Of a DNA stretch of 64,000 nt, positions 4,421 to 48,314 are shown one piece after another (the first letter of the stretch is position 1; each line of letters opens with the position of its first letter). The notes under the pieces were generated by a model. That model saw nothing but the letters and a program-made list of their open reading frames with translations. It searched no databases and had not been told where the DNA came from. Source of the DNA: Sphyrna mokarran (taxonomy: Eukaryota); contig JAGIQG010000040.1 of assembly GCA_024679065.1 (NCBI GenBank), forward strand, positions 10,974,001 through 11,038,000. The letters are read 5' to 3'. Made by a program: the position numbers and the translations under genes.

Positions 4421-4483
4421 TGGGTTCCACTATCAGCCTGGTTCCAATGCCAAAGATGAGCTTTCTAGTCTCGCCATATGTCA
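4421..4483 (-). CDS. TCR alpha/delta-type J segment (TYGETRKLIFGIGTRLIVEP)
   Basis: KLIFG-x-GT motif; GTAAGT donor at 4420-4415; phase 1 and in frame with the C exon; preceded by a 12-RSS. Confidence 0.92.
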
Positions 4484-4511
4484 CACAATCTTTCATTCCA
4501 TAACAAGATCT
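4484..4511 (+). other. 12-bp-spacer RSS of the TCR J segment
   Basis: Heptamer CACAATC (4484-4490), 12-nt spacer, nonamer ACAAGATCT (4503-4511); non-consensus but keeps CAC and ACAA. Confidence 0.75.
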
Positions 4512-4834: not shown

Positions 4835-4873
4835 AGTTTCTGTACTGCTCTCTCCGTGTTCTCTATCACTGTG
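4835..4873 (-). other. 23-bp-spacer RSS of the supporting TCR V
   Basis: CACAGTG (4873-4867), 23 nt, ACAGAAACT (4843-4835). Confidence 0.92.
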
Positions 4874-5179
4874 TTGTGCGTTGACTCAGTGCACAGTAGT
4901 ACACAGCCGAGTCGCTCAGTTGCAGTTTGGAGATTGTTAATCGGCTGATTTTCTCGCCAGAATCGATAGAAGCAGAAATTCTGTCTCCGGCAATGTTTTC
5001 TTTGTTGTCCCCTCCTGAAGTGTGTGCCTGTTGCAATAATTTCGGAGCCTGCCCTGGAGATTGGCTGTACCAGTGTACTGTGTACTGACATAACCCTGAA
5101 TATTCACATCTTAGAATAACCGTGTTCCCTGCAGCAGAGGTTTGGAGAGGCGGATTCTTGGACACCAGGGAACTGGAAT
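4874..5179 (-). CDS. Leaderless supporting TCR-delta-type V segment (STCRdV-like) with CDR1 cysteine
   Basis: Acceptor tcctccAG before 5179, phase 1. (D)SSSLVSKNPP...LRCEYSGLCQYTVHWYSQSPGQAPKLL...DSAVYYCALSQRTT with canonical C/W/YYC and an extra Cys in CDR1 (5090-5088). No credible leader exon upstream. These are the hallmarks of the supporting V of NAR-TCR. Confidence 0.9.
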
Positions 5180-8239: not shown

Positions 8240-8920
8240 AATTCAATATCTAGGGGAACGGATGGGGTGAACAGCAGATCAATGGCAGATGGAACTTAAT
8301 CCTGAAAATTGTATGGGGATGCACGTTGGGAGGGGTAACAAGACAAGGGAGTATTTAATAAATGGCAGGACACTGGAAAGCTCAAATGAACAGAAAGATT
8401 TGATTCCTTGTCCACAAATCACTGAAGGCAATAGGACATGATAATTGGGGCAGACGGGACAATCGCTTTAATAAGTCATGGCATAAATTATTAAAACTGC
8501 CGGGTTATGTTAGAGCTGTACAAAGGTTTCGATAGGCCACATCTATCGCCTCACTATTGAAAGAATATGATTTCACTGAAAGAGTACGGAGGAGATTCAC
8601 CATAATGTTGCCTGCGATGGAGCATTTGAACTTCAAGATGAGCCTGGATAAGCTTATATTGTGCTCTTCAGAGCAGAGACCCACTTTGAGATCTATAAGT
8701 TTATACAGGAATTGACAGGGTAAATGGGAATCAAATTCTCCTCACAGTTGAAGGGTCAATAAATAGGTGGCATATGTTTAGAAAGGGAGATGGACGTAGA
8801 TGAACTTGCAAAACATTTAAGGCTGTGGGTCTAGTGCTGGAAGATGGAATTCATGAAGATTTTGTTGGTACAGACTTGATAAGCTGAAGGGCCTATTCCA
8901 TGTTATATAATTCTGTGATA
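8240..8920 (+). mobile_element. Decayed CR1 LINE fragment
   Basis: Degenerate CR1 RT 3' sequence; closely paralogous to 10060-10495. Confidence 0.65.
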
Positions 8921-9498
8921 GCAGATTTCAATATGCTGTACCAACAGGCAAGGAAGACATCATGGAACATTCTTCATCTTAGAAAGAAGTAAAAGAAACA
9001 ATCTTTAATTAGTGGAATGGCCTTGGAAGTAATTGACAACTTAAATGGCCAATCAGGGCATTAATGGGAGGATTGGGTTTGCCATGGTCATTTCCGGTGC
9101 CATGTCACAGCCAAGTACAATATCTGAATATTCCTCTTTCAGACGCCACAACAATTTGTTTCTACTCAGTGCCTCGCTCAGCTTCATTACAGACAGCATG
9201 TAAAAGTAAACCATATTGCTTTATACTGATGACCATATTTACTACACCAGGTGGAAACGGCAGATTTCCATCCGTAACGGGTTTATCATCGCCATACTGA
9301 GACTGGTCTTTACTTCCAGTTGCTCACATAAATTTCCATTAAATTGCACCAGCTGCCCTGGTGAGATTTGACCGTGTGCAGGCTGAGCACTGGGTCACAG
9401 AAATACTAACGCAATTACATTACCACCACATCACCAACTCCACAGTGCGGACATGAACCCAGTAAGTCTGTAAGATATTTCGGCTTGGAGTCACTTAC

Positions 9499-9846
9499 CA
9501 GCTGTGACATTCACCACCGTTCCAGGTCCGTCTGCATAACCCGCTTTTGAAACGCTAGTTCCACATCCATGTTTATACTGAGCTTTACAGTAATAGATGG
9601 CGGTGTCTTCAACTCTCACATCCTGAATTTCAAGAGAAAATGTGTTTTGTGCTTTATTCACCGATACAACAAATCTTCCTCCGCTGGAGATCCGCTCCCG
9701 TTCTTTCCCGCTCTGGGTTTGCCTAAAGAAATGTCCGCCCTCCAAACTAGAATAATCAGCTTTGAAAACACAGGTGATGGTGAGAGACTGACACTCCTTC
9801 CTGGTCACCGCTTTTGGGCTCTGTGTCACTGACTGACTGAAAGATT
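9499..9846 (-). CDS. Germline-joined NAR-type V(D)J exon (fixed second variable domain)
   Basis: Acceptor atttccAG before 9846 and GTAAGT donor after 9499; 348 nt, phase 1-1, open. (E)SFSQSVTQSPKAVTRKECQSLTITC...GHFFRQ...YYCKAQYKHGCGTSVSKAGYADGPGTVVNVTA; V and J are fused with no RSS; about 72% amino-acid identity (67/93 by hand) to the V at 14534-14820. Confidence 0.92.
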
Positions 9847-9985
9847 CTGGAAATTAAACACAGAGAGTTTAATGGGCCGTCAGAGCCAAATCACACAACA
9901 GAGTTAAACCCCAAACAATGTCTGTAATTGGGATAAATTGGAGCAGATTTATATCCAATCCACACAATGTGGGTTAGTTTGAATA

Positions 9986-10004
9986 GTACTCATAGGGTAA
10001 ACAG
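9986..10004 (-). pseudogene. Destroyed leader-exon remnant of the germline-joined V
   Basis: Homologous to the 3' end of the leader and its donor at 14961-14979; donor GTGAGTAC has become ATGAGTAC (9993) and homology ends after about 11 exonic nt, so there is no ATG. Confidence 0.8.
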
Positions 10005-10059: not shown

Positions 10060-10495
10060 GGGTATGTAAGCTTTCACATGGCACGAAGATTAACAGAATG
10101 GCTAATAGTGAGGAAGACGGTCAAAGATTGTCGGATAATATTGACAGCTTGGTCAGATGGCAGGTCAATGGCTCATGGAACTTAACACTGAAAAGTGCGA
10201 GTGGACGCACGGTGGGAGGAGTAACAAGACAAGGGAGTATTTAATGAATGATAGAGCACTGGAAAACTCAAATGAACAGAAAGATTTGACTCCTCATCCA
10301 CAAGGCCCTGAAGGCGATAGGAGATGATACTAGGGGCAGACGGGACGATTGTCTTTATAAGTCGTGCAAAAACAAAGAATATTAAAACAGCGGGATTATG
10401 TTAAAGCTGTACAAAGCTTTCGATAGGCCACATCTGGAGTACTGTGTACAGTGCTGTTAGCCTCAGTATTGAAAAAAATATGATTTCACTGAAGG
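10060..10495 (+). mobile_element. Decayed CR1 LINE fragment
   Basis: Paralogous to 8240-8600 (shared 'gtaacaagacaagggagtattt', 'ctcaaatgaacagaaagatttga'). Confidence 0.65.
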
Positions 10496-10594
10496 TTTAG
10501 AGAGGAGGTTTGTGAGAGAGTCTGTGTGTGTCAGAGAGAGAGAGGGAGAGGAGAGAAAGTGTATGAGAGAGAATGTGTGATAGAGAGCCACAAT

Positions 10595-10815: not shown

Positions 10816-13673
10816 TTATCCTCTCGTGTTTCTCCAAACTCTGGGGGAAAAAAGACCCACCATGTTCCCCCCTTGAAGAGAGAGTGAATTGTTGCTGGTT
10901 TCTTCCCTAAGGAAAGCATACATTGATTCAATAGTTCCAACTGATAGGAAAAGCAAATTAGTGCAGATGCTGGTATCTGAAATCAAAAGAGAAAATGCTG
11001 GAAAATCTCAGCAGGTCTGACAGTATCTCTAAGGACAGAAAAGAGCTGATATCGCGAGTCCAGATGACCCTTTGTCAAACATTATCTTGAATGCCTTCAA
11101 CACTGACTATCCACAACTCTCGGGTGCACATAATTCTCACATTCACCACAATGGCTTTGACTGAAGAAGTCTCTCCCCTTCTCAGTCCAAATGGCTGAAC
11201 AGGTTTTCTGCAAATCTGACCCCAAGTTACAGACTTTCTACTCTAGAAAAACACAAACACCCAGAGTTTGTCTTGTCATATCCTTTGAGAATAAAATAAA
11301 TTCTATTGAGTTCACTCCTTATTCCTTTAATCTTAATGTAAGTGAAAAAGGCAATGGGTCTTCAATCCCTTCTCAAAGGACAAGCATTTTATCCAAAGAC
11401 TCTATTTGAAGAACTATCGTTAAATTCCCTCTGAAATATGTAGATCCTTCCTAAACAAAGAGACCAAATATTACACTACAACCATAATCTCCACAAATTT
11501 CAATATCAATCCTGAGATGTTAGGGTGTTGTATTTTCAGTTTTCTTCAGAAACAATCCAATCCTTCTCTCTCTGTCGATTAGAACAAAGAACAAAGAATA
11601 AAACAGCACGGGAAACAGCCCCTTCGGCCCAACGAGCCCGCTCTGCCACCCCGATATTCCCACCTCTACCCGCGATCCCTGTCCATGTTTATAGATCTAT
11701 GGTTTAAAAACCAAATTTGAGACAATTTAGGGAGAATTTGTTTTGCTAATTGCTTGTTCTAATGGAATATCACCTTCGCATTTGTTTGCTGTTGTTCCTG
11801 TTCCCCTTCAGACGATTTTCACATCATCTTTACTCTCTCATTGCACTGTGTGATTTCAATTAACAGTAATCAGGAATACAAATATATTACAGCAATAGCT
11901 CAGAAACAACCATCACCGCCCTTCTGTATGTCCTGACCCATTGGCAGGACAGACTCAGCAGAGCTGGCGGCACAATGGGGTATAGTCGGGAACCACTTGC
12001 CCTGAGAGTTCTCAACATCGACTCTGAACCGCATAAACACTTCTGACATCAGGTCAGACATTGACAAGGGAACTGCTGCTGACTACTACGTGGCTCCGCT
12101 GATGTATCTAAACTCCTCTATTTTGAACAAAAAAAAATGAAGGAAGCAGTGAAGATGGCAAGAACACAGAATGAACTCTGTTTGGGGGGCTTGAATATTC
12201 ATCACTACGATTGGCTCGATAGCATATAGCTCGACATAACTGCTAAACTGGAACTGTGGCAGGGAGCAAGGAAACTGCCAAGAGGGCAAAACACATACTT
12301 GACCTCATCCTCAGCAAAATAATTGCCGCAGAGGCATCACCAGAGCAGTGTCAGCAGGACTGACAACTTACAGTCCTCGTGGACACAAAGTCCTGTCTTC
12401 ACATTGAGCTACGCTCCATCCTGTCGTCTGCCACAGTCACTGTGCTAAATGGGATAGGGTTTGAGCCGATCTAGCAACTCATTACTCGGCATCCATGAGG
12501 CATTATGGACCATCGGCAGCAGCATTGCACTGAAACCCAATCTGTAACCTTGTGGCTCAGCATATCCACTGCAGTGACATTAGCAGACACGGGATTAACA
12601 CTGGTTCAATGAAGACTCCAGGAAGCAACAGCAGCAGCAACACCAGGCAATGCTATAAGTGATTTGTCAATCCAGTAAAGATAAGGCTAAGCTTTGGCAA
12701 CAATTTTCATCCTGAGGTATTGAGTGGATGATCCATCTCAACTACGTCCGGAGGTTCGTAGTGTCGCTGATGTCAGTTTCCATCAAACTGAATTCACTCC
12801 ATGTGATTTCAGTACCGGCTGAAGGCAATGGATGCTGCAAAGACTGTGGGCCCTGGAAATATGCTTGTAACAGTACAGAAGACCTATGCTCCAGAATTAA
12901 CCACTCACGGTGGAAAATGAAAAGAAAAGTTATTGTTTATATTGAGGAAAATTTTTAAATATATACAATGTCATTGATTCCAGTCATTGACTTCTCTAAT
13001 ACAAAATTCCTTCAAACCTAGAATAAGTATTGTTTAATTCTCTGTTCGCAGTCTGGGTCAGATAATGATGGAGTCGCTGCCTTTAAATGACATCGATCTC
13101 ATTCAGCCGGTAGCTTATTCACATTGCACGGCTGGGACTGCGATCTATTGCCGAGGAGAGAGCTCTGACATTCCGCTGTGGGGCTGTAAACGGCAGACAT
13201 ATCTCTCACATTCACTTCTTACAACCAGACTGGATTCTAGAGTGTCCTCAATTTAAGTTTGTTGAAAAAAAAACTATCAGGAGTGTCAGACTGGTTGATG
13301 TTGATGTGCCTCTTAAAGCAACGTTCGCCCAGATGTTGTCAACTCTCTCAGAACCCTGAACACCAGGACCCGCACCCCGCGCCCCACCACCCTCTCGCCC
13401 CGAACCCCCTCCGCCCCCGCCCCAGTCTCCCCCCAAAGTTTCATCCCACTACCGCTGCCCCGCTGACAAACTCCATCAGCTCTCAAAGAGACTTTCCCCG
13501 GAACTGACTGGAGCCAGTTCCAGAATCACACCCTGCTCCCAACTCCTAATCTGTAACGGATGATTTTCCACAGGAAGATTGGATGGGATTGAAACCAGAC
13601 TGATCACAATGATAAAGTGAAGGGGGAGATTAAAGGAGACAGACTGTAACAAGACGGGATTGGAGTCACTTAC

Positions 13674-13723
13674 CGGCTGTGACCCTCACCACCGTCCCGG
13701 ATCCATCCGCATAATCATATTTA
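13674..13723 (-). CDS. NAR-type J segment (KYDYADGSGTVVRVTA)
   Basis: DG-x-GT motif as in IgNAR J segments; GTAAGT donor at 13673; phase 1; perfect 23-RSS upstream. Confidence 0.92.
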
Positions 13724-13762
13724 CACAGTGACTCCATCTTCAATCTCCCCGGTACAAAAACC
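13724..13762 (+). other. 23-RSS of the NAR-type J
   Basis: CACAGTG (13724-13730), 23 nt, ACAAAAACC (13754-13762): perfect consensus. Confidence 0.95.
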
Positions 13763-14074: not shown

Positions 14075-14146
14075 GGTATTTGTTCAACTTCTTTCCACCG
14101 TGACCATCCCATATATTACACAGTGTTACAATTCAGCATCAAAACC
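14075..14146 (-). other. D segment (coding 14103-14118, TAATATATGGGATGGT) flanked by 12/12 RSSs
   Basis: V-facing side: CACAGTG (14119-14125), 12 nt, ATCAAAACC (14138-14146). J-facing side: CACGGTG (14102-14096), 12 nt, ACAAATACC (14083-14075). Confidence 0.9.
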
Positions 14147-14495: not shown

Positions 14496-14533
14496 AGTTT
14501 TTGTATCGCGGGAAGCCGAGGCCCATCACTGTG
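14496..14533 (-). other. 22-bp-spacer RSS of the NAR-type V
   Basis: CACAGTG (14533-14527), 22 nt, ACAAAAACT (14504-14496). Confidence 0.92.
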
Positions 14534-14820
14534 TCTGTATTTATAATGAGCTTTACAGTAATAGGTGGCGGCGTCTTCAACTCTCAAATCCCGAATTTCC
14601 AGCGAAAACGTCTTTTCTGCTTTGTTCACAGACACAATAAATCTCCCTCCGTTGGAGATCCGCTCCCGCTCCTTCCCGGGCTGGGTTTGTTTGAAGAACT
14701 CGCCGTTAACCAAAGGGCGAGCAAAGAATCCACCATAGAAAACACAGTTGATGGTGAGAGACTGACACTCCTTCTTGGTCACCGCTTCTGGGCTTTGTAC
14801 CACCGACTGACTGAAAGATC
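14534..14820 (-). CDS. Rearranging NAR-TCR-type V segment
   Basis: Acceptor atttccAG before 14820, in frame with the leader. (R)SFSQSVVQSPEAVTKKECQSLTINC...GEFFKQ...ERISNGGRF...DAATYYCKAHYKYR; short FR2-CDR2 region as in IgNAR V, extra FR1 (A-B loop) Cys at 14767-14765. Confidence 0.92.
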
Positions 14821-14968
14821 CTGGAAATTAAACACAGAGAGTTTAATGGACCATCAGATCCGAACCACACAACGGGGCTAAAACCCCAAACAGAGTCTGT
14901 AATTGGGATGGACTGGGACAGCTTTATATCCAATCCACACAATGTGGGTTAGTTTGATCGGTACTCAC

Positions 14969-15011
14969 GGGGTAAACAGGCACACAGGGTGAAAACAAGA
15001 AGGATTCTCAT
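14969..15011 (-). CDS. Leader (signal peptide) exon MRILLVFTLCACLP
   Basis: ATG at 15011, hydrophobic core, 43 nt phase 1, GTGAGT donor, 148-nt intron to the V exon. Confidence 0.9.
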
Positions 15012-22987: not shown

Positions 22988-23857
22988 TTATCTGTGAACT
23001 CGCTGGTGTTTCACCAGATCGGATGATTCGATAAATCTCTTCCCGCACTCGGAGCAGGTGAACGGCCTCTCCCCAGTGTGAATGCGCTGGTGTGTCAGCA
23101 GGTGGGATGAGCGCGCAAATCCCTTCCCACACTCAGGACAGGTGAACGGCCTCACCTCAGTGTGAATTTGTTGGTGTGTCAGCAGGTTGGAGGACTGAGT
23201 GAATCCCTTCCCACACTTGGAGCAGATGAATGGCCTCTCCCCAGTATGAACTCGCTGGTGTACAGTGAGATGAGATGATCGCCTGAACCCAGTCCCACAG
23301 TGTGAGCACTGGAACGGTCTCTCCTCAGTGTGAACAAGCTGATGGGACATCAGTTCACCAGAACTTTTGAAGCACTTCTCACACTCTGGACATTTAAACG
23401 GTCTCTTGTCAGTGTGAACTCGTTGGTGTGTCTGAAGCTGGGTTGCTGTCCTGAAACTCTTCCCACACTTTGAGCAGCTGAACAGTGTGTACTCGGTGTG
23501 AATGCGCTGGTGCTCCCTCAGTCCGTGAGGGCTTTTAAATCTCTTCTTACAATTGGGGCATTGAAACTCCCTCTTATCAGTGTGAACTTGCTGGTGTTTC
23601 AGTAGGTGGGACGAGCGAGTGAATCCGTTTCCACACACCGAGCAGGTGAATGGCCTCTCCCCAGTGTGGAGTCGCTCATGCAGCTGAAGACAGATAAACT
23701 GAGCGAATCTCTTCCCACATACGGAACAAATGAAAGGCCTTTCCCCGGTGCGTCTGCGTCGATGAATTTCCAGCTCAGATGGGGATCTGAATCCCTTTCT
23801 ACAGTCCACACATTTCCATGGTTTCTCCCTGGCTTGAACAGTACTTCCTGCTTCCAT
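22988..23857 (-). CDS. C2H2 zinc-finger protein (10 fingers, first lacking its last His)
   Basis: 289-aa ORF of tandem CxxC...HxxxH repeats with TGERPF linkers; no KRAB/SCAN domain visible. Confidence 0.85.
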
Positions 23858-24714
23858 GTTTAAAGGCCGATGATATTCAAGTCCTGATGAATCGAGTGAC
23901 TCTGTCAGATTTTGAGGTTTAGTTTGACTTTCCTGACTGTGAACCTTTCAAATAATCTGTAAAATGAATTTAAGACAGAATCAAGGATATATAAAAGAGA
24001 ACTCACAAAAACACAAAGGCAGGTTGTAAATTTGGGCTAAATTAATCTCATAATTCGTGGGGCTAGTGCTAGGAAAAAGTGACCCTGAAAACTGCTGGCA
24101 TCTCATAACAATCCAACTGGTTCACTAATGTTCCTAAGGGAAGGGAACCTGCCACCCAGTCTGGGCTTACACAAGACTCTGTTTCCATGGGAGGAGGGAG
24201 AGAGGCAAAGGCAATGGTAAAAAAGAGGGAGAGAGGCAAAGGAGAGGTAAAAGAGATGAACTTCAGAGATCTGCAAATGAATTTGAATTTCAAAATAATC
24301 ATCGAAACCCATATCTCCATTCACTGGAAAGACAAGAGCAGCTGGTGTCTGGGAAATCCATCACCTCCAAGACCCACACCAGTGAGTTCAGACTGGGGAG
24401 AGACCAGACTCCTTCTCCACGTGTGAGAAGATACATTCGATCATCTAATCAGCTGACACACCAGTGAGTTCAGCAGTGATTACTGGGGTTGGATTCTGCT
24501 GTTGTTGCTGCTGTTAATGACATTCAAAACTGAACTTTGTTCATTCTGATCATTTGCGTTTGTTTCTGTTGTTGTTTATAATTTCTGGAACTCTTTTAAA
24601 TGTTTAATATTCTGGAACTTACCTTGTAACCCTTACTCTTCTAATAAAGTATCTTTTTTTATTCAATAGCAAATAGTGATTTAGTTGTAATTTTTTCAAC
24701 TGAGTCAGAGCAGA

Positions 24715-31000: not shown

Positions 31001-31630
31001 TGAGGTGGTGATAATATCAGTGATCCAGCCGAGTGTTCTGGGGATGGGTTCAAGTCCCATCATGGAGCCTGGGGGGTGAGATTTAAATAGAATTCACGAA
31101 ATGCTGTAAAATCTGGATATAATTTCATCTGAGTAACCATTACAGCTGTGAACAATTTTAAAAATCCACCCTGTTTATTCATGAGTGTCTGCTGTCTTTC
31201 CATAGACTTGTCAACGTGCAATTCCGTCTCTAACTGCCCTCCTCAGGGGCAGGAAATAAATGCTGGTCTTGACAATAAAACCTACATCATATGAAGTAGT
31301 GAAGGAGAAACACTGATAGACTTGGGTTAATGGCTGTCATCTTTCTCGGAGGCAGGACACATGCACAGTTATCACTGTCCCTGCGAGAAAATCCTGGACT
31401 GACAGTGATAGATTTTGGAGTCTCCTTTTCCAGAGGGTTAGAAGAGGAGAATTTACACACAGTAAATTCAAATCAAGAGAAACATTTGCTTCAATTTTTA
31501 ACTTCAGACTTTTTTTTACATGATATTAGAAGTGCCGGAGTAGAAGGGAGAAAGCTGAAACCAAAAGTTGCATCAGGATCTGATGCTATCGTTTAAATTA
31601 TTGTAATCTGAATATCATTGTGTTTTGAAC

Positions 31631-32666
31631 ATGGAAGGGGAAAGCACAGTTAATAGTGGAGAGAAACTGTACATGTGTTCTGTGTGTGGACGAACATTCA
31701 GCCGATCATCTGGCCTGTTGAGACATAAATGCAATCACAACAGGGAGAAACAATGGAAATGTGCAAACTGTGGGAGGAGATTCAGATTTCCATCTGAACT
31801 GAAAACGCATCGACACAATCACACTGGAGAGAAACCATTCACCTGCTCTGAGAATGGGAAGGGGTTCACTACCTCATCCATCTTGTTAACACACCAGCGA
31901 CTTCACACTGGGGAGAGACCGTTCACCTGCTCCGAGTGTGGGATGGGATTCATTTGTTCATCCCACCTGCTGAAACACCAGTGGGTTCACACTGGGGAGA
32001 GGCCATTCACCTGTCATGATTGTGGGAAACGATTCATTACCTCATCAATCCTGCTGACACACCAGAGAGTTCACACTAGAGAGAGACCATTCCGATGCCC
32101 TGATTGTGGGAAGGGATTCCCTACCTCTTCTATCCTGCTGAAACACCAGCGAGTTCACACTGGAGAGAGGCCGTTTACCTGCTCTCAGTGTGGAAAGGGA
32201 TTCACTGATTCATCCTGTCTGCTGAAACACCAGAGAATTCATAACGGGGAGAGGCCATTTATCTGCTCCGAATGTGGGAAGGGATTCACCCAGTCATTCA
32301 ACCTCCTAAAACACCAGCGAGGTCACACTGGAGAGAGGCCATTCACCTGCTCTGAGTGTGGGAAGGGTTTCAGTCAGTCATTCATCTTGTTGAAACACCA
32401 GCGAGTTCACAGTGGGGAGAGGCCATTCACTTGCTCAAGTTGTGGGCAGGGATTTATTGATTCGTCCACCCTGCAGAGACACCAGCGAGTTCAGTGGTGA
32501 GAGACCATTCACCTGCTCTGATTGCGGTAAGAGATTCAGTCAATCATCCAACCTGGTAAAGCACCAGCGAATTCACACTGGGGAGAGGCCATTCACCTGC
32601 TCCATGTGTGGGAAGGGATTCACTCAGTCACCTCACCTGCTGAAACACCAGCGTGTTCACAAATGA
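31631..32666 (+). CDS. C2H2 zinc-finger gene (12 fingers) with a frameshift at about 32490
   Basis: ORF from ATG 31631 ends HQRVQW* at 32500; two more intact fingers continue in another frame to 32666; 'gttcagtggtgag' lacks 2 nt relative to 'gttcacagtggggag'. Confidence 0.8.
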
Positions 32667-37605: not shown

Positions 37606-37990
37606 TTTGTACCACTGTGCCATCCAAATCAGCTGATAGGAACAGCTTTTTCCCCCTTCTCACATGTGTGCGCGCTCCCCCTCTTCTCGCGCGCCCCTTA
37701 AACACAAACCCTGTTCCTCCCTCTTTGCTCCTCCCACAAGGGCGAACGAGTTGGGTTTTTATGACAATCCAGCAGTTTCCAATGGTTACTTTTTCCTAGT
37801 TCCAGCCCCACAAATGGCCAATCAACCTCAGACTAATTCATTCAGCTCAATTTCACAATCTGCCTTTGTGCTTTTGTAGGTTCTCTCTCACTCCCATTTT
37901 ACTGTTTTAAATCTATTTCACAAGATTTTAGAAGGAGAAGATTTGTAGTTGGGAAATTGAAACCAAACATCACATCAGGATCTAATACAG

Positions 37991-38821
37991 ATGGATTTTA
38001 TCGTAAATAGAATATCATTAGATTACATGGAAGGAAAAAACACTGTTCACACTGGGGAGAAACCGTACACATGTTCTGTGTGTGGACGAGGCTTCAGTCG
38101 ATCATCTGGCCTGTTAGAACATAAATGTACTCACAATGGGAAGAAACCATGGAAATGTAGAGACTGTGGGAAAGGGTTTGATTATCCATCCAAGTTGGAA
38201 ATTCATCAACGCACTCACACTGGGGAGAGACCATTCACCTGCTCCCAGTGTGGGAAGGAATTCAGACACTCATACCACTTACAGACACACCAACATATTC
38301 ACGCAGGTGAGAGGCCGTTCACTTGCTCCCAGTGTGGGAAAGGATTTGCTCATTCCTCCAATCTGGTGAGACACCAGCGAGTTCACACTGGGGAGAAACC
38401 ATTCCAATGTTCAGATTGCAAGAAGTGTTATAAAAGTTCTGGGGAACTGATATCCCATCAACGCATTCACACTGATGAGAGACCCTTTCGGTGTTCTCAC
38501 TGTGGGACTGGATTCAGACGATCATCTGACCTCACTGTACACCAACGAGTTCACACAGGTGAGAGACCTTTTAACTGCCCAGATTGTGGGAAGTGCTATA
38601 AAAGTTCTGGGGAACTACTGTCCCATCAACGTATTCATACTGACATGAAACCTTTCAGGTGCTCTCAGTGTGGAACGGGGTTCAGACGATCATCTGACCT
38701 TACTGTACATCTGCGAATTCACACTGGGAAGAAGCCATACTCCTGCTCCGTGTGTGGAAAAGGATTCACTCAGTTATCCAACTTGTTAATGCACCAGCGA
38801 ATTCACAAGAAATCTCAGTGA
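37991..38821 (+). CDS. C2H2 zinc-finger protein (9 fingers), intact
   Basis: 276-aa ORF (family-conserved MEG start at 38027), nine complete fingers, upstream acceptor at about 37924. Confidence 0.88.
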
Positions 38822-42616: not shown

Positions 42617-43795
42617 GGAGTTTTTTGAAAAGGTGACCAAAGAGATGGATAAGGGTAAGGCAGTTGACGTGGTATATATGGACTTCAATAAGGTGTTCGA
42701 TAAGGTTCCCTGTGGAAGGCTTCTGCAGAAAATGCAGATGTATGGGATTGAGGGTGATTTAGCTAATAGCATTAGGAATTGGCCAGTTGATAGAAGACAG
42801 AGGGTGGTGGTTGATGGGAATTATTCATCATGGAGTTTGGTTACAAGTGGTGTTCCTCAGGGATCTGTTTTGGGGCCTCTGCTGTTTGTAATTTTTATAA
42901 ATGATCTGGATGAGGGTATAGAAGGATGGATTACTAAATTTGCTGATGACACCAAAGTTGGAGGAATTGTAGATAGTGAAGAGGGGTGTTATAGTTTGCA
43001 GAGAGACTTAGACAAGTTGCAGAGCTGGGCCAAGAGGTGACAAATGGAGTTTAATGCGGAAAAGTGTGAGGTAATTCACTTTGGCAGAAATAACAAATGT
43101 ATAGAGTATAGGGCTAATGGTAGGACTCTTAATAGTGTTGATGAACAGAGGGATCTCGGTGTATATGTGCATAGATCCCTGAAAGTTGGCACTCAAGTTG
43201 ATAACATTGTTAAGAAGGCATACGGAGTCTTGGCTTTTATTGGTAGGGGGATTAAATTTCAGTGTTGCAACTGTACAAAACTCTGGTGTGGCTGCACTTG
43301 GAGTATTGTGTACATTGTGGAAGCATTGGAGAGGGTGCAGAGGAGGTTTACCAGGATGTTGCCTGGTATGGAGGGAAGGTCTTATGAGGAACGGCTGAGG
43401 GATTTGAGGTTATTTTCATTCGAGAGAAGGTGGCTAAGCGGTGACCTTATTGTGGTATATAAGATGATCAGAGGATTAGACAGGGTGGACAGTGATCGCC
43501 TTTTTCCTCGGATGGAGAAGATTAGCACAAGGGGACATAGCTTTAAATTAAGGGGTGGTAGTTATAGGACGGATGTCAGAGATAGGTTCTTTACCCAGAG
43601 GTGGTGAGGGCATGGAATGCCCTGCCTGCAGCAGTTGTAGATGCGCCAAGTTTGGGGGTGTTTAAGTGGTCACTGGATAGGTTTATGGATGAAAATGGAA
43701 TGGTTTAAGTTAGAGGGTTATTGCTTTTTCTCCATTGGTCAGCACAGCATTGAGGGCCGAAGGGCCTGTACTGCGCTGTAATGTTCTATGTTCTA
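42617..43795 (+). mobile_element. 5'-truncated CR1 LINE (RT domain)
   Basis: [36 protein letters not shown]; frameshifts; same subfamily as 48.3-50.9 kb. Confidence 0.92.
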
Positions 43796-45149: not shown

Positions 45150-45717
45150 GTGACTGGAAAAGCACCAACACTCTGCCACACTCAAGTGAGAGTGTTCCAG
45201 TGCACTGACTGAAGAGCTTTAACCAGTTACACTGAATAAATACCACACCATTCACAGCGGGGAGAGACTAGACACATGTTGTGTGTGTGGGTGAGGCTTC
45301 AACTGATTGTCCACCCAAGTGAGAGACAAGGACACCTGCCCCATGGAGAAACCATGGGAATGTGCTGACTGTGGAAAGAGATACAGTATACCCTCTCTGC
45401 TGGATGCTCATCAGCGCAGCCACACTGGGGAAAGGCCATTCACTTGCTCTCAGTGTGGGAAGGGATTCATTCGGTTCCAGCACCTGCAATTACACAAGCT
45501 TGTTCACAGTGGGGAGAAGCCGTTCACCTGTTCACAGTGTGGGGAGGGATTCATTTGGTCATCCAGCCTGCAGAAGCACCAGCGAATTCACACTGGGGAG
45601 AGGCTGTTCACCTGCTCTCAGTGTGGGAAGAGATTCACTCGGTCATTCAACTTGCAGATACACCAGCGAATTCACACTGGGGAGAGACCGTTCACCTGCT
45701 CTCAGTGTGGGAAGATA

Positions 45718-45750
<33 letters not shown>

Positions 45751-46075
45751 CACTCGTCATTTTCACTTGCGATACACCCAGCGAATTCACACTGGGAGCG
45801 ACCGTTCACCCTGCTCTTCCCAAAAGTTGGGGGGGGGGGGGGGGGGGGTGGGGAAGAGATTCACTTGGTCATCCAACTTGCAGATACACCAGCGAATTCA
45901 CACTGGGGAGAGGCCGTTCACCTGCTTTCAGCATGGAAAGGGATTCAGTCAAGCATCCATCCTGCAGAGACACCAGCAAATTCACAGTGGGGAGAGGCCA
46001 TTCACCTACTCTCAGTGTGGAAAGGGATTCAGAGTTTCACCCCAGCTGCTGAGACACCAACAAGTTCACGAGTGA
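45150..46075 (+). pseudogene. C2H2 zinc-finger gene, disrupted (decayed 5' fingers; T29 and G20 runs inside the array)
   Basis: Fingers in ORFs 45307+ and 45767+; frame broken at 45715-45850; last fingers lack Cys (FTCFQH, FTYSQC). Confidence 0.7.
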
Positions 46076-46319
46076 TATTCAGGGTTGGATTCTGCTGTTA
46101 TTGTTTCAGTTCTCAGTTACATCCGGGACTGCATTTTGTTCATTCTCACAGTTGATCAATGCGAAGGGTTTCTTTCTGTTGGACTGACCAATCTCTTGAC
46201 TTTGCCTCCAGTAGGCTGATGCTCTTTGAGTCTTGTTGTGAATACCTGGTTTTAAATTTCATAAGGATCACAGGGTGACTGAGGATTAGGAAGGTCTGAG
46301 ATATTCTGTCTGAAACACT

Positions 46320-46640: not shown

Positions 46641-48314
46641 CGACAATAAAGAACAAACTAACAAAATATTGTAATACCTGAAACTGAATGGGAATGTTGA
46701 ATTTCTGTTTTAAAGATATTGTGAATACATTGTCCTGGACAATAATGAAATTGGGTAACGCAGTTTGGATATGGTTGAATGGAATATATCAATCTGGTAT
46801 CCACCTACAGTTAGTGAAAGTCTGGAATATGTACCTGGAAATCACTCCCTGACAGCACTGTGGATGTATTTACAGGCATTGTAGTAGTACAGGAAGGCAG
46901 TGTTGGGGTTGACCATGGCCGAGGCAGCTACACACAGCCACATATTCTGTTATAATTGAAGGACTGCAGATTGAATGTGAGGCATTATGGGACTGGACTG
47001 TCTTGACCACATTCCTGTGACTGCTCAGTTTCTGTAATTACAGACCATTAACGCTGCTTAGCAGGGCCTCCAGGGAGGACCCAGTGAGAATATTTACTGG
47101 GAATGAGTTGGAATTAAACTTATCCAAGGACCAGCTGGTGTTAAGCAGATGTTTTTCCTGAATCTGTAAAAAGGGGAGTCTGACAAATCAACAAACAGTG
47201 GGAAGTAGTTGGTTAAGAAATCAAGATGTGTTCTCAGGCATTGTTTAAATTAATTTATCCTAAACTTGTGATAAAAACTGTGACTGATTTGTGATCTGAT
47301 AGTCAGTGAAGTGATGGTATTCTCCAAGTAGCACTGGACTGAAAAGCGGACCCTCTGAGAGTAGATCCGAATGGTTATTATCTTACCCCATCATGGCCAG
47401 TGAAAAATCAGAGCTTGAGTGGGATCCGGATAGGTCTCTTACCTGTCGTTTGGAAACTAAGAACACACAACCTATCGATAAAATGATTTGAGAGTCGAGC
47501 CATTTTGAGTCTGGATGACACTTCATAAGAACTCTTATAAAGGGTTATCCAGACTCGAGACATTGGCTCTATTCTCTCTCCACAGATGCTGTCAGAGCAG
47601 TGTTTTGTGTTTTTGTTTGATTCCAGCATCTGCAGTGTTTCACTTTTTTATGATAAAATGAGGTTTGGAATCCCCAGGACCCTCTCCCAAAACAGAGAGA
47701 GTGATGGGAGAGGGGAAAAAAAGGATAAGAATGAAAAAGTCTGGCTTCTGATTCTCTGAGCCTGTGTAGAATTAACAAAATGGAGTAAAGCATAGAAGTT
47801 ACCCATCCCTATCAATAACTGATCAATTACAACGATTAGGTTGAAGAATGTAATAAAAAATGAATAGATGAAGTATAAAATGAAGTCTGTTTTGTTAGAA
47901 AAGTTTTTTAAAATTATGTAAAATGCTATAATTATGCAAGTTTTTTCTGCTCATTCCCCACTCCTATAGGCTCTGTAGAGAAGTTAACCCTTTCAGCAAT
48001 CAGTCAATTTGTTTTTAAGTCACTTGGAAACGCGTCTCTGTTTTAGTTTATAATTGTATCTTTATTCGAACCAGTTAACTCTGGAAATTTTAAATGTAAC
48101 CTGGAGGAATTTGGAATAACTGAGAATTCTCTCGTTGTCACCTCAACTTCAGATAAAGAACAAAAATTTACAGGTGGTAACGGTAACTCAATAAACTGTT
48201 TGTTGATTGAATCAGGCTTGAGTGTTGAATGATTCTTCTGAGTTCATTGCCCCCAACACATTGGGTACATTACCACTGGAGACCAGATATTGCCAAAATC
48301 TTCAGACAATGGAT

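Follow-up and report, generated by a model that had tools for sequence, protein, structure and literature searches.

NARTCR is described as a receptor chain of three Ig domains in which both V domains are somatically rearranged (PMC12227049, PMC5931798), and its hallmarks are given as a Cys in the a-b loop of the NAR-type V, the lack of the WYRK Trp, and a Cys in CDR1 of Vδ, the two Cys residues forming a putative interdomain bridge (PMC1845163). Shark TCR genes, in turn, are described as translocons (PMC6795676). TCRμ clusters, as portrayed in PMC7615758, are arranged in tandem as Vμ-Dμ-Jμ-Vμj-C, each with its own C and with an invariant, already joined V downstream of the rearranging V, and Vμj, which is without a leader intron, has been attributed to retrotransposition (PMC2275272). 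The supporting V2-J2 of platypus TCRμ is reported without a D (PMC7615758), and according to a 2023 review no animals but marsupials have pre-assembled TCR domains. In cartilaginous-fish Ig genes (NS4/kappa, lambda, and IgM1gj), germline-joined members are characterized by an RSS-free, in-frame junction, have kept their introns, and stand among split paralogues (PMC2193156).

The window analyzed here, a stretch of 64,000 nt from Sphyrna mokarran, contains a NARTCR minicluster with a germline-joined NAR-type V exon that was likely made by RAG long ago and that, on balance, is best read as the predicted invariant middle domain of a three-V TCRδ chain. The likeness to NARTCR includes a NAR-type V with a leader and an a-b-loop Cys, a leaderless Vδ with a CDR1 Cys, and TCRδ-type C and transmembrane (TM) sequences, as set out in PMC1845163. 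Unlike NARTCR, however, the joined-exon clusters carry one to four germline-joined NAR V exons between the two V, every cassette includes a J and a C of its own, and no D was found for the supporting V. With marsupial TCRμ, the locus shares tandem clusters with their own C and a germline-joined V located 3' of a rearranging V. Nevertheless, Vμj is VH-like, acts as the supporting domain, pairing with Vγ, and lies next to C, whereas the shark exon is NAR-type and is separated from C by Vδ-J; moreover, Vμj is without a leader intron, whereas the shark exon retains both intron flanks. Since the supporting Vδ keeps its own RSS behind the joined V, four extracellular domains are predicted, against three in TCRμ. 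The shark exon is not orthologous to Vμj, and the gene is a NARTCR variant and not a member of TCRμ. A convergence on the TCRμ design, as proposed in the first-pass annotation, does not hold, since the joined V of TCRμ is the supporting V and the shark joined NAR V precedes the supporting Vδ. Germline-joined fish Ig genes possess a promoter and leader of their own, and their V is N-terminal, whereas the shark TCR exon is leaderless and internal; their joints have been dated to 0-49 My (PMC2193156), whereas the shark TCR join is probably far older.

In the mostly open-access literature searched, no germline-joined NARTCR V, three-V TCR chain, or NARTCR cluster with its own C is reported, and table S1 of PMC12227049 is possibly relevant to the novelty of the own-C clusters. 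With this locus, germline V(D)J joining would reach a shark TCR gene, and the intron-retaining route, put forward in PMC2275272 as an alternative for Vμj, is the one actually used at the shark locus. In being self-contained and having a C each, the NARTCR clusters resemble TCRμ in organization, contrary to the translocon description, and a predicted TCR chain with at least four extracellular domains tests the limits of receptor length under antibody-style antigen binding.

The minicluster, the joined exon, and its copies

On the minus strand of the window, the order is leader, V1, D, J1, joined exon, leaderless Vδ, J, and C1 exon. The leader exon of the rearranging NARTCR V (14969-15011; 43 nt, phase-1 donor GTGAG) is followed by a functional leader intron of 148 nt (14821-14968), the unrearranged V1 with its RSS (14496-14820; V1 itself 14820-14534, a-b-loop Cys, RSS spacer of 22), the D segment (14075-14146; D itself 14118-14103, with a 12-spacer RSS on each side), and J1 (13674-13762; J1 itself 13723-13674, with a 23-spacer RSS and a phase-1 donor at 13673). 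Downstream of the joined exon lie the leaderless supporting Vδ (4835-5179; Vδ itself 5179-4874, CDR1 Cys, 23-spacer RSS), the cluster's own Jδ-type segment (4421-4511; J itself 4483-4421, FGIGTRL, degenerate 12-spacer RSS), and its own TCRδ-type C1 exon (2517-2828), while intact connecting-peptide (CP) and TM exons are found just outside the window (C994:10973707-10973610 and 10973175-10973068). In agreement with NARTCR, V1 has a leader, an a-b-loop Cys, and its own D and J with RSSs and is without the WYRK Trp, and the supporting Vδ is leaderless and has a CDR1 Cys and an RSS. The C exon is of the C1 set, is accompanied by a connecting-peptide Cys and a TM exon, and matches the translocon C at C994:5.36 Mb at 79%; we take it to be of δ type from this likeness together with a familiar TM motif. 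The closest proteins to the window C and Vδ are from Mustelus (80% and 83%, respectively), which points to a carcharhiniform-like shark.

No D was located between the supporting Vδ and J of the window cluster, where a Vδ with a 23-RSS joins a 12-RSS J, an arrangement that is α-like or resembles that of platypus TCRμ, although the platypus has no germline-joined V. The 23-RSS of Vδ is followed by degenerate tandem RSS copies (4873-4421; a 61-nt repeat, with one extra copy on C1271). Upstream of the cluster, the window contains four ORFs of presumed C2H2 zinc-finger arrays (22988-23947, 31607-32500, 37961-38821, and 45307-46155) and fragments of what, from their motifs, we assume to be LINE ORF2 (43041-43607 and 48229-49698).

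The germline-joined NAR-type V-junction-J exon (9499-9846, minus strand) has an open frame over its 348 nt, phase 1 at each end, Cys residues at positions 18, 25, 86, and 94, and a GTAAGT donor at 9498, and its CDR3 reads KAQYKHGCGTSVSKAGYA, followed by DGPGT. A scan that recovered the RSSs of V1 (14533), D (14119 and 14102), J1 (13724), and Vδ (4873) found none inside the joined exon, which bears out the earlier description of V and J fused with a CDR3 and without RSS. The exon is preceded by a relic leader intron of 147 nt (9847-9993), whose acceptor TTTCCAG is intact and which is identical to the functional intron in 127 of 148 columns (86%). The old leader donor reads ATGAG, with the GT>AT change placing an A at 9993, and only about 11 nt of the leader exon are still alignable (9994-10004), without an ATG or a hydrophobic stretch; the 400 nt located 5' of 10004, compared with the upstream DNA of four NARV genes in search of a relic promoter or leader, scored no better than shuffles. 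The homology of the leader intron, the mutated donor, and the loss of the rest of the leader were therefore correctly described in the first-pass annotation. At the other end, the 14-nt J donor flank (GTAAGTGACTCCAA) is indeed identical to that of J1, as had been noted, but the same 14-mer is present in six of the nine rearranging J segments checked, the translocon J included, so it marks a retained intron flank and gives no sign of copying from the neighboring J1. Beyond these 14 nt the likeness is weak and exceeds all 300 shuffles for two of the nine J flanks.

The joined exon is situated within a block of about 5 kb in the J1-Vδ intron, the rest of which aligns at about 70% with all three of the non-joined clusters compared. 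It is flanked by direct repeats, an upstream copy at 10160-10510 that is 77% like the downstream copy at 8274-8597, which are a likely substrate for unequal crossing-over. A LINE-like fragment of about 1.15 kb (8038-6883) is present in the window cluster and missing from C180, C47, and C1271.

DNA and protein searches of the genome recovered seven joined exons, namely that of the window, one each on C180 and C47, and four in tandem on C1271. These copies, on four contigs, are 89-100% identical in protein and have a common junction, and all seven have 348 nt, an open frame, AG/GT ends, and AT at the old leader donor. Since one T cell could not produce seven diverged copies with one junction and a dead donor, the joined exon is germline, inherited DNA. 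The four clusters with joined exons are 92-99% identical, and their differing V1 types and flanks indicate that most of them are paralogues, although C180 and C47, which match at 98.9% across 18 kb, are possibly allelic. Each tandem unit of C1271 measures about 2.3 kb; the units are 90-96% alike and are bounded by the same repeat that flanks the single exon of the window; unequal crossing-over between flanking repeats would have produced this four-copy array.

The TCRδ-type C exon has 13 matches genome-wide, two of which, at 3.9 and 5.4 Mb of C994, lie among ordinary V genes in a translocon-like region that also holds NARV-J-Vδ cassettes without their own C. Outside the translocon, 11 units of L-V-D-J-Vδ-J are found, nine of them with C, CP, and TM; joined exons are present in four of the 11 clusters examined, which therefore depart from the NARTCR pattern of exactly two V, both rearranged, and absent from the other seven. 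Self-contained NARTCR miniclusters with their own J, Cδ-type, CP, and TM exons are located at C994:10.43-12.33 Mb, C180, C47, and C1271 (L021-L066), and Mustelus models on separate scaffolds (P0016, P0017, P0022, P0023, and P0026) suggest the same kind of self-contained clusters. The CP exon of the miniclusters is 18 nt shorter than that of the translocon. Among incomplete clusters on C994, d1 has a C with no CP or TM found, and d2 has no C nearby; C-CP-TM without V or J within 20 kb occurs at 11.956-11.960 Mb of the same contig, and the short contigs C1307 and C1427 hold V-D-J only.

Relatives in other sharks and the age of the join

The junction comparison scored 52 junctions from 50 proteins, out of 56 longer relatives; five relatives that escaped the pattern were inspected by eye and are unlike the window junction, and one had no J. 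Against the window core, five of the 52 junctions reach scores of 23-28 (Cetorhinus P0003, Carcharodon P0004, P0001 with two domains, and P0005), whereas the remaining 47 score <=-2. The lamniform junctions come from automatic gene models read as protein, and those of P0003 and P0004, though from different genera, are the same (KAQYRYRCGSTVSKDAYE). The GSTV in P0003, P0004, and P0062 could be J-heptamer read-through; consequently, P0001 and P0005, in which there is no such motif, weigh more. XP_041031384.1 has two such joined domains in tandem ahead of Vδ, the basking-shark cluster comprises four accessions, and a leader is included in the models of four of the five lamniform proteins that share the junction (P0003, P0004, P0005, and P0062). 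In the basking-shark models, the CDR1 Cys of Vδ is replaced by Arg; P0001 is misnamed as DSCAM-like.

Of the 56 database models in which a CDR3 seemed present, we discounted the majority as RSS read-through by automatic annotation (TVMG, HSDG, SLC, SLW, and GITV). Since many of the NCBI NARTCR models (P0007-P0056) splice V to J through such read-through, their apparent CDR3 is not evidence of germline joining. A near-length homologue search returned three proteins, all of them unrearranged V that simply run on into RSS or flank, and a junction-focused search found no joined orthologues beyond P0001-P0005.

The near-identical junction in white-shark and basking-shark models indicates that the join is probably ancient, and it seems rather likely from these models that the lamniform genes are orthologous to the joined exon. 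If so, the join would predate the lamniform-carcharhiniform split. This split is placed at roughly 170-190 My. The V-region tree groups the joined copies with the lamniform V weakly (81/77), and in further tree tests constraining the two together reached the highest likelihood obtained (+9.7 relative to the unconstrained search, p-AU 0.71), but neither a placement beside the minicluster V of the same genome (p 0.34) nor one beside the neighboring V1 (p 0.22) was rejected. Identity to the 13 unrearranged minicluster V is 81-87% throughout for the three joined copies examined; given also the presence of the junction in lamniform models, the joined exon is not a recent copy of the neighboring cassette. 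In Heterodontus francisci, P0002 (XP_067869961.1) reads J, then two identical junctions unrelated to the window CDR3, and then Vδ, a possible case of independent germline joining in the horn shark.

Predicted chain and selection on the joined exon

J1, the joined exon, and Vδ are all in phase 1, so the default predicted splice gives three V domains; J1-to-Vδ skipping and leader-to-joined-exon splicing would be in frame as well. T cells would rearrange V1-D-J1 and Vδ-J and then splice L-V1DJ1-joinedV-VδJ-C, with the joined domain as a spacer or stalk in the chain, and from splice phases the tandem C1271 cluster is predicted to encode a chain of up to six V domains. A structure model of the joined domain (pLDDT 89) has a complete VNAR-like fold, with VNARs as its top structural matches and NARTCR-type sequences as its relatives, and places Cys94 on the F-G hairpin tip (CDR3) and Cys18 in the a-b loop before strand B; the single-sequence fold of P0001 (pLDDT 38) was too low to use. 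The a-b-loop Cys18 would bond down to the CDR1 Cys of Vδ. An inserted NAR domain would then orphan the a-b Cys of V1 unless it offered a Cys on top, a position that Cys94 fits, and an upward bond from Cys94 would reach the a-b-loop Cys of the overlying domain, creating a stackable module. All seven copies retain Cys94, despite a synonymous change in its codon, as do the five lamniform junctions; variation at Cys94 and Gly95 is confined to synonymous changes, whereas residues 92, 93, and 96 are altered. The predicted disulfide between Cys94 and the a-b-loop Cys has a little less than an even chance of being real, and, since the tandem domains of the horn shark (P0002) are without a CDR3 Cys, stacking need not depend on Cys94. 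A broader and more speculative proposal, which we advance tentatively, is a TCRδ of variable height, in which an ancient joined NAR domain with a Cys at each end would serve as a disulfide-linked stackable spacer, so that different clusters would present the antigen-binding NAR domain on chains of two, three, or six V, with a join that predates the lamniform-carcharhiniform split and a second origin in horn sharks.

Alternatively, the joined exon could be N-terminal, the leader splicing over the unrearranged V1-D-J to give an invariant, innate-like two-V NARTCR that would need only Vδ-J rearrangement. The opossum TCRμ1.0 is an analogue of such an invariant N-terminal form, and so are the neonatal germline-joined shark Ig genes. 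This arrangement is compatible with the leader donor and the joined-exon acceptor being both in phase 1, with unrearranged V1 having no donor of its own, and with the reading of leader-joinedV-Vδ in the four lamniform models, and germline-joined shark Ig genes are reported to be expressed early in life (PMC2193156). However, the single Cys at the CDR3 tip would lack a partner, the four intact copies in tandem on C1271 are hard to explain if just one could occupy the N-terminus, and the J1 donor, being closer, would be expected to compete. We consider it unlikely as the main product, although the N-terminal and three-V isoforms may both be present. The description of an obligate internal exon in the first-pass annotation was too strong, since the upstream phase-1 leader donor could splice directly onto the joined exon.

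Among six copies of the joined exon, with each distinct change counted once, there are 13.7 synonymous and 12.3 non-synonymous changes (omega 0.28-0.37, p 0.002-0.014); when C1271d is added, the pooled omega of the seven copies is 0.45-0.60 (p 0.01-0.14). Against the window copy, pairwise dN/dS is 0.00 for C1271a (p 0.002), 0.20 for b (p 0.002), 0.26 for c (p 0.001), and 0.38 for d (p 0.04), and among the C1271 copies it is 1.25 for b-d and 3.6 for c-d, neither of which is significant. Between the window and C1271a, none of 230 first and second codon positions differ, versus 61 of 897 positions in the downstream intron (p 8e-7), and between the two copy types the relic introns are 13% different, with exon dN and dS of 0.024 and 0.12. 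C1271c was left out of the intron comparisons owing to a deletion in its unit. C1271a and b differ by 0.3% in the intron, yet have 13 exon differences; conversion between copies is evident, and thus the comparisons are non-independent and homogenization of the exon can mimic constraint. The dead donor in every copy implies that constraint acted after leader loss, when translation was possible only via an upstream exon, and purifying selection on the joined exon after donor loss is supported by the six copies and more weakly with the seventh. In C1271d, an 1185-nt repeat (a LINE fragment related to the LINE-like fragment of the window) lies beside the acceptor and interrupts the relic intron, and this copy may be relaxing.

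The exon could also be a skipped, decaying relic or a gene-conversion donor, kept intact in appearance by conversion among copies. Germline-fused pseudo-V genes of this kind act as conversion donors in the chicken. The mosaic divergence among copies, the relaxed appearance of C1271d (1 synonymous and 12 non-synonymous changes relative to C1271c), the seven of 11 miniclusters examined that are without the exon, and the in-frame J1-to-Vδ skipping would all be accommodated. Nevertheless, the synonymous excess among six copies argues against it, as does the junction kept across shark orders; in simulations of neutral evolution, an open frame flanked by both splice sites survives in just 27%, 8%, and 2% of cases at 5, 10, and 15% divergence per branch, and the CDR1 of the exon is absent from all 13 rearranging V. 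A relic or donor is accordingly quite improbable, and the joined exon is probably functional, judging from its sequence and predicted splicing. The aromatic content of CDR1, tried as a mark of the joined V, did not separate it from rearranging V (3 versus 2-4).

Origin of the join

V and J are fused in frame in inherited DNA, with both breaks within a few codons of their coding ends; the RSSs are gone, and the leader intron and the flank of the J-C intron are both kept, as expected of a RAG-type germline-joined V. The retention of both intron flanks excludes a retrocopy of processed mRNA, in agreement with the earlier claim that the exon was not retrotransposed. These features are those used by Lee et al. 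for germline-joined Ig genes (PMC2193156) and make RAG in germ cells the likeliest agent, which we infer with good confidence; of the RAG-type germline join claimed before, the germline part is borne out by the seven copies with their common junction and dead donor. A duplicated NARV-D-J cassette inside the J1-Vδ intron would have undergone germline joining and, later, leader loss.

The join could instead stem from an ordinary deletion or from a short conversion tract templated by the cDNA of a rearranged transcript, a possibility that concerns its origin only. The junction has no trace of D, P nucleotides, or RSS: none of six D sequences, aligned on both strands with 1000 shuffles each, exceeded shuffles (p 0.09-1.0), contrary to the D alignment foreseen in the first-pass annotation, no P nucleotides were recognizable, and a search for a relic J RSS gave p 0.49 and 0.86; the joint is old and its parent cassette is gone. 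In addition, the inserted stretch is long in comparison with the little TdT activity noted for described shark germline joints (PMC2193156), and a conversion tract confined to the junction would leave both introns intact. However, both breakpoints lie near the V and J coding ends, in frame and with the RSSs excised, as in the joints of PMC2193156, germline RAG joining is established in sharks, and a chance deletion would rarely strike both ends, which makes a non-RAG origin improbable. A 10-nt word, consisting of a heptamer end and the first bases of the D of cluster b (L050, C994:10511968-10512018), is common to this D and the window-type junction (9564-9555); it is missing from copies c and d, was seen post hoc, and is possibly due to chance.

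That the assembly caught a somatic T-cell rearrangement, or is in error here, is extremely improbable in view of the seven copies on four contigs, the lack of any unrearranged V closer than 87%, the working leader that a somatic joint would retain, and the 31-mer content of sequencing runs from at least five other organism labels. In this survey of 31-mers, 24 runs are listed, none of them RNA, which bears on expression in neither direction; with nine rows <0.2 and X1 (a possible source) set aside, 14 of the 24 (seven studies; five organism labels besides that of the best holder, plus unlabelled runs) hold 21-31% of the words. The same words are found at <=0.6% in unrearranged paralogues and at 17-100% in the six other joined copies, which suggests close orthologues in related species, as judged from shared words rather than from the junction itself.
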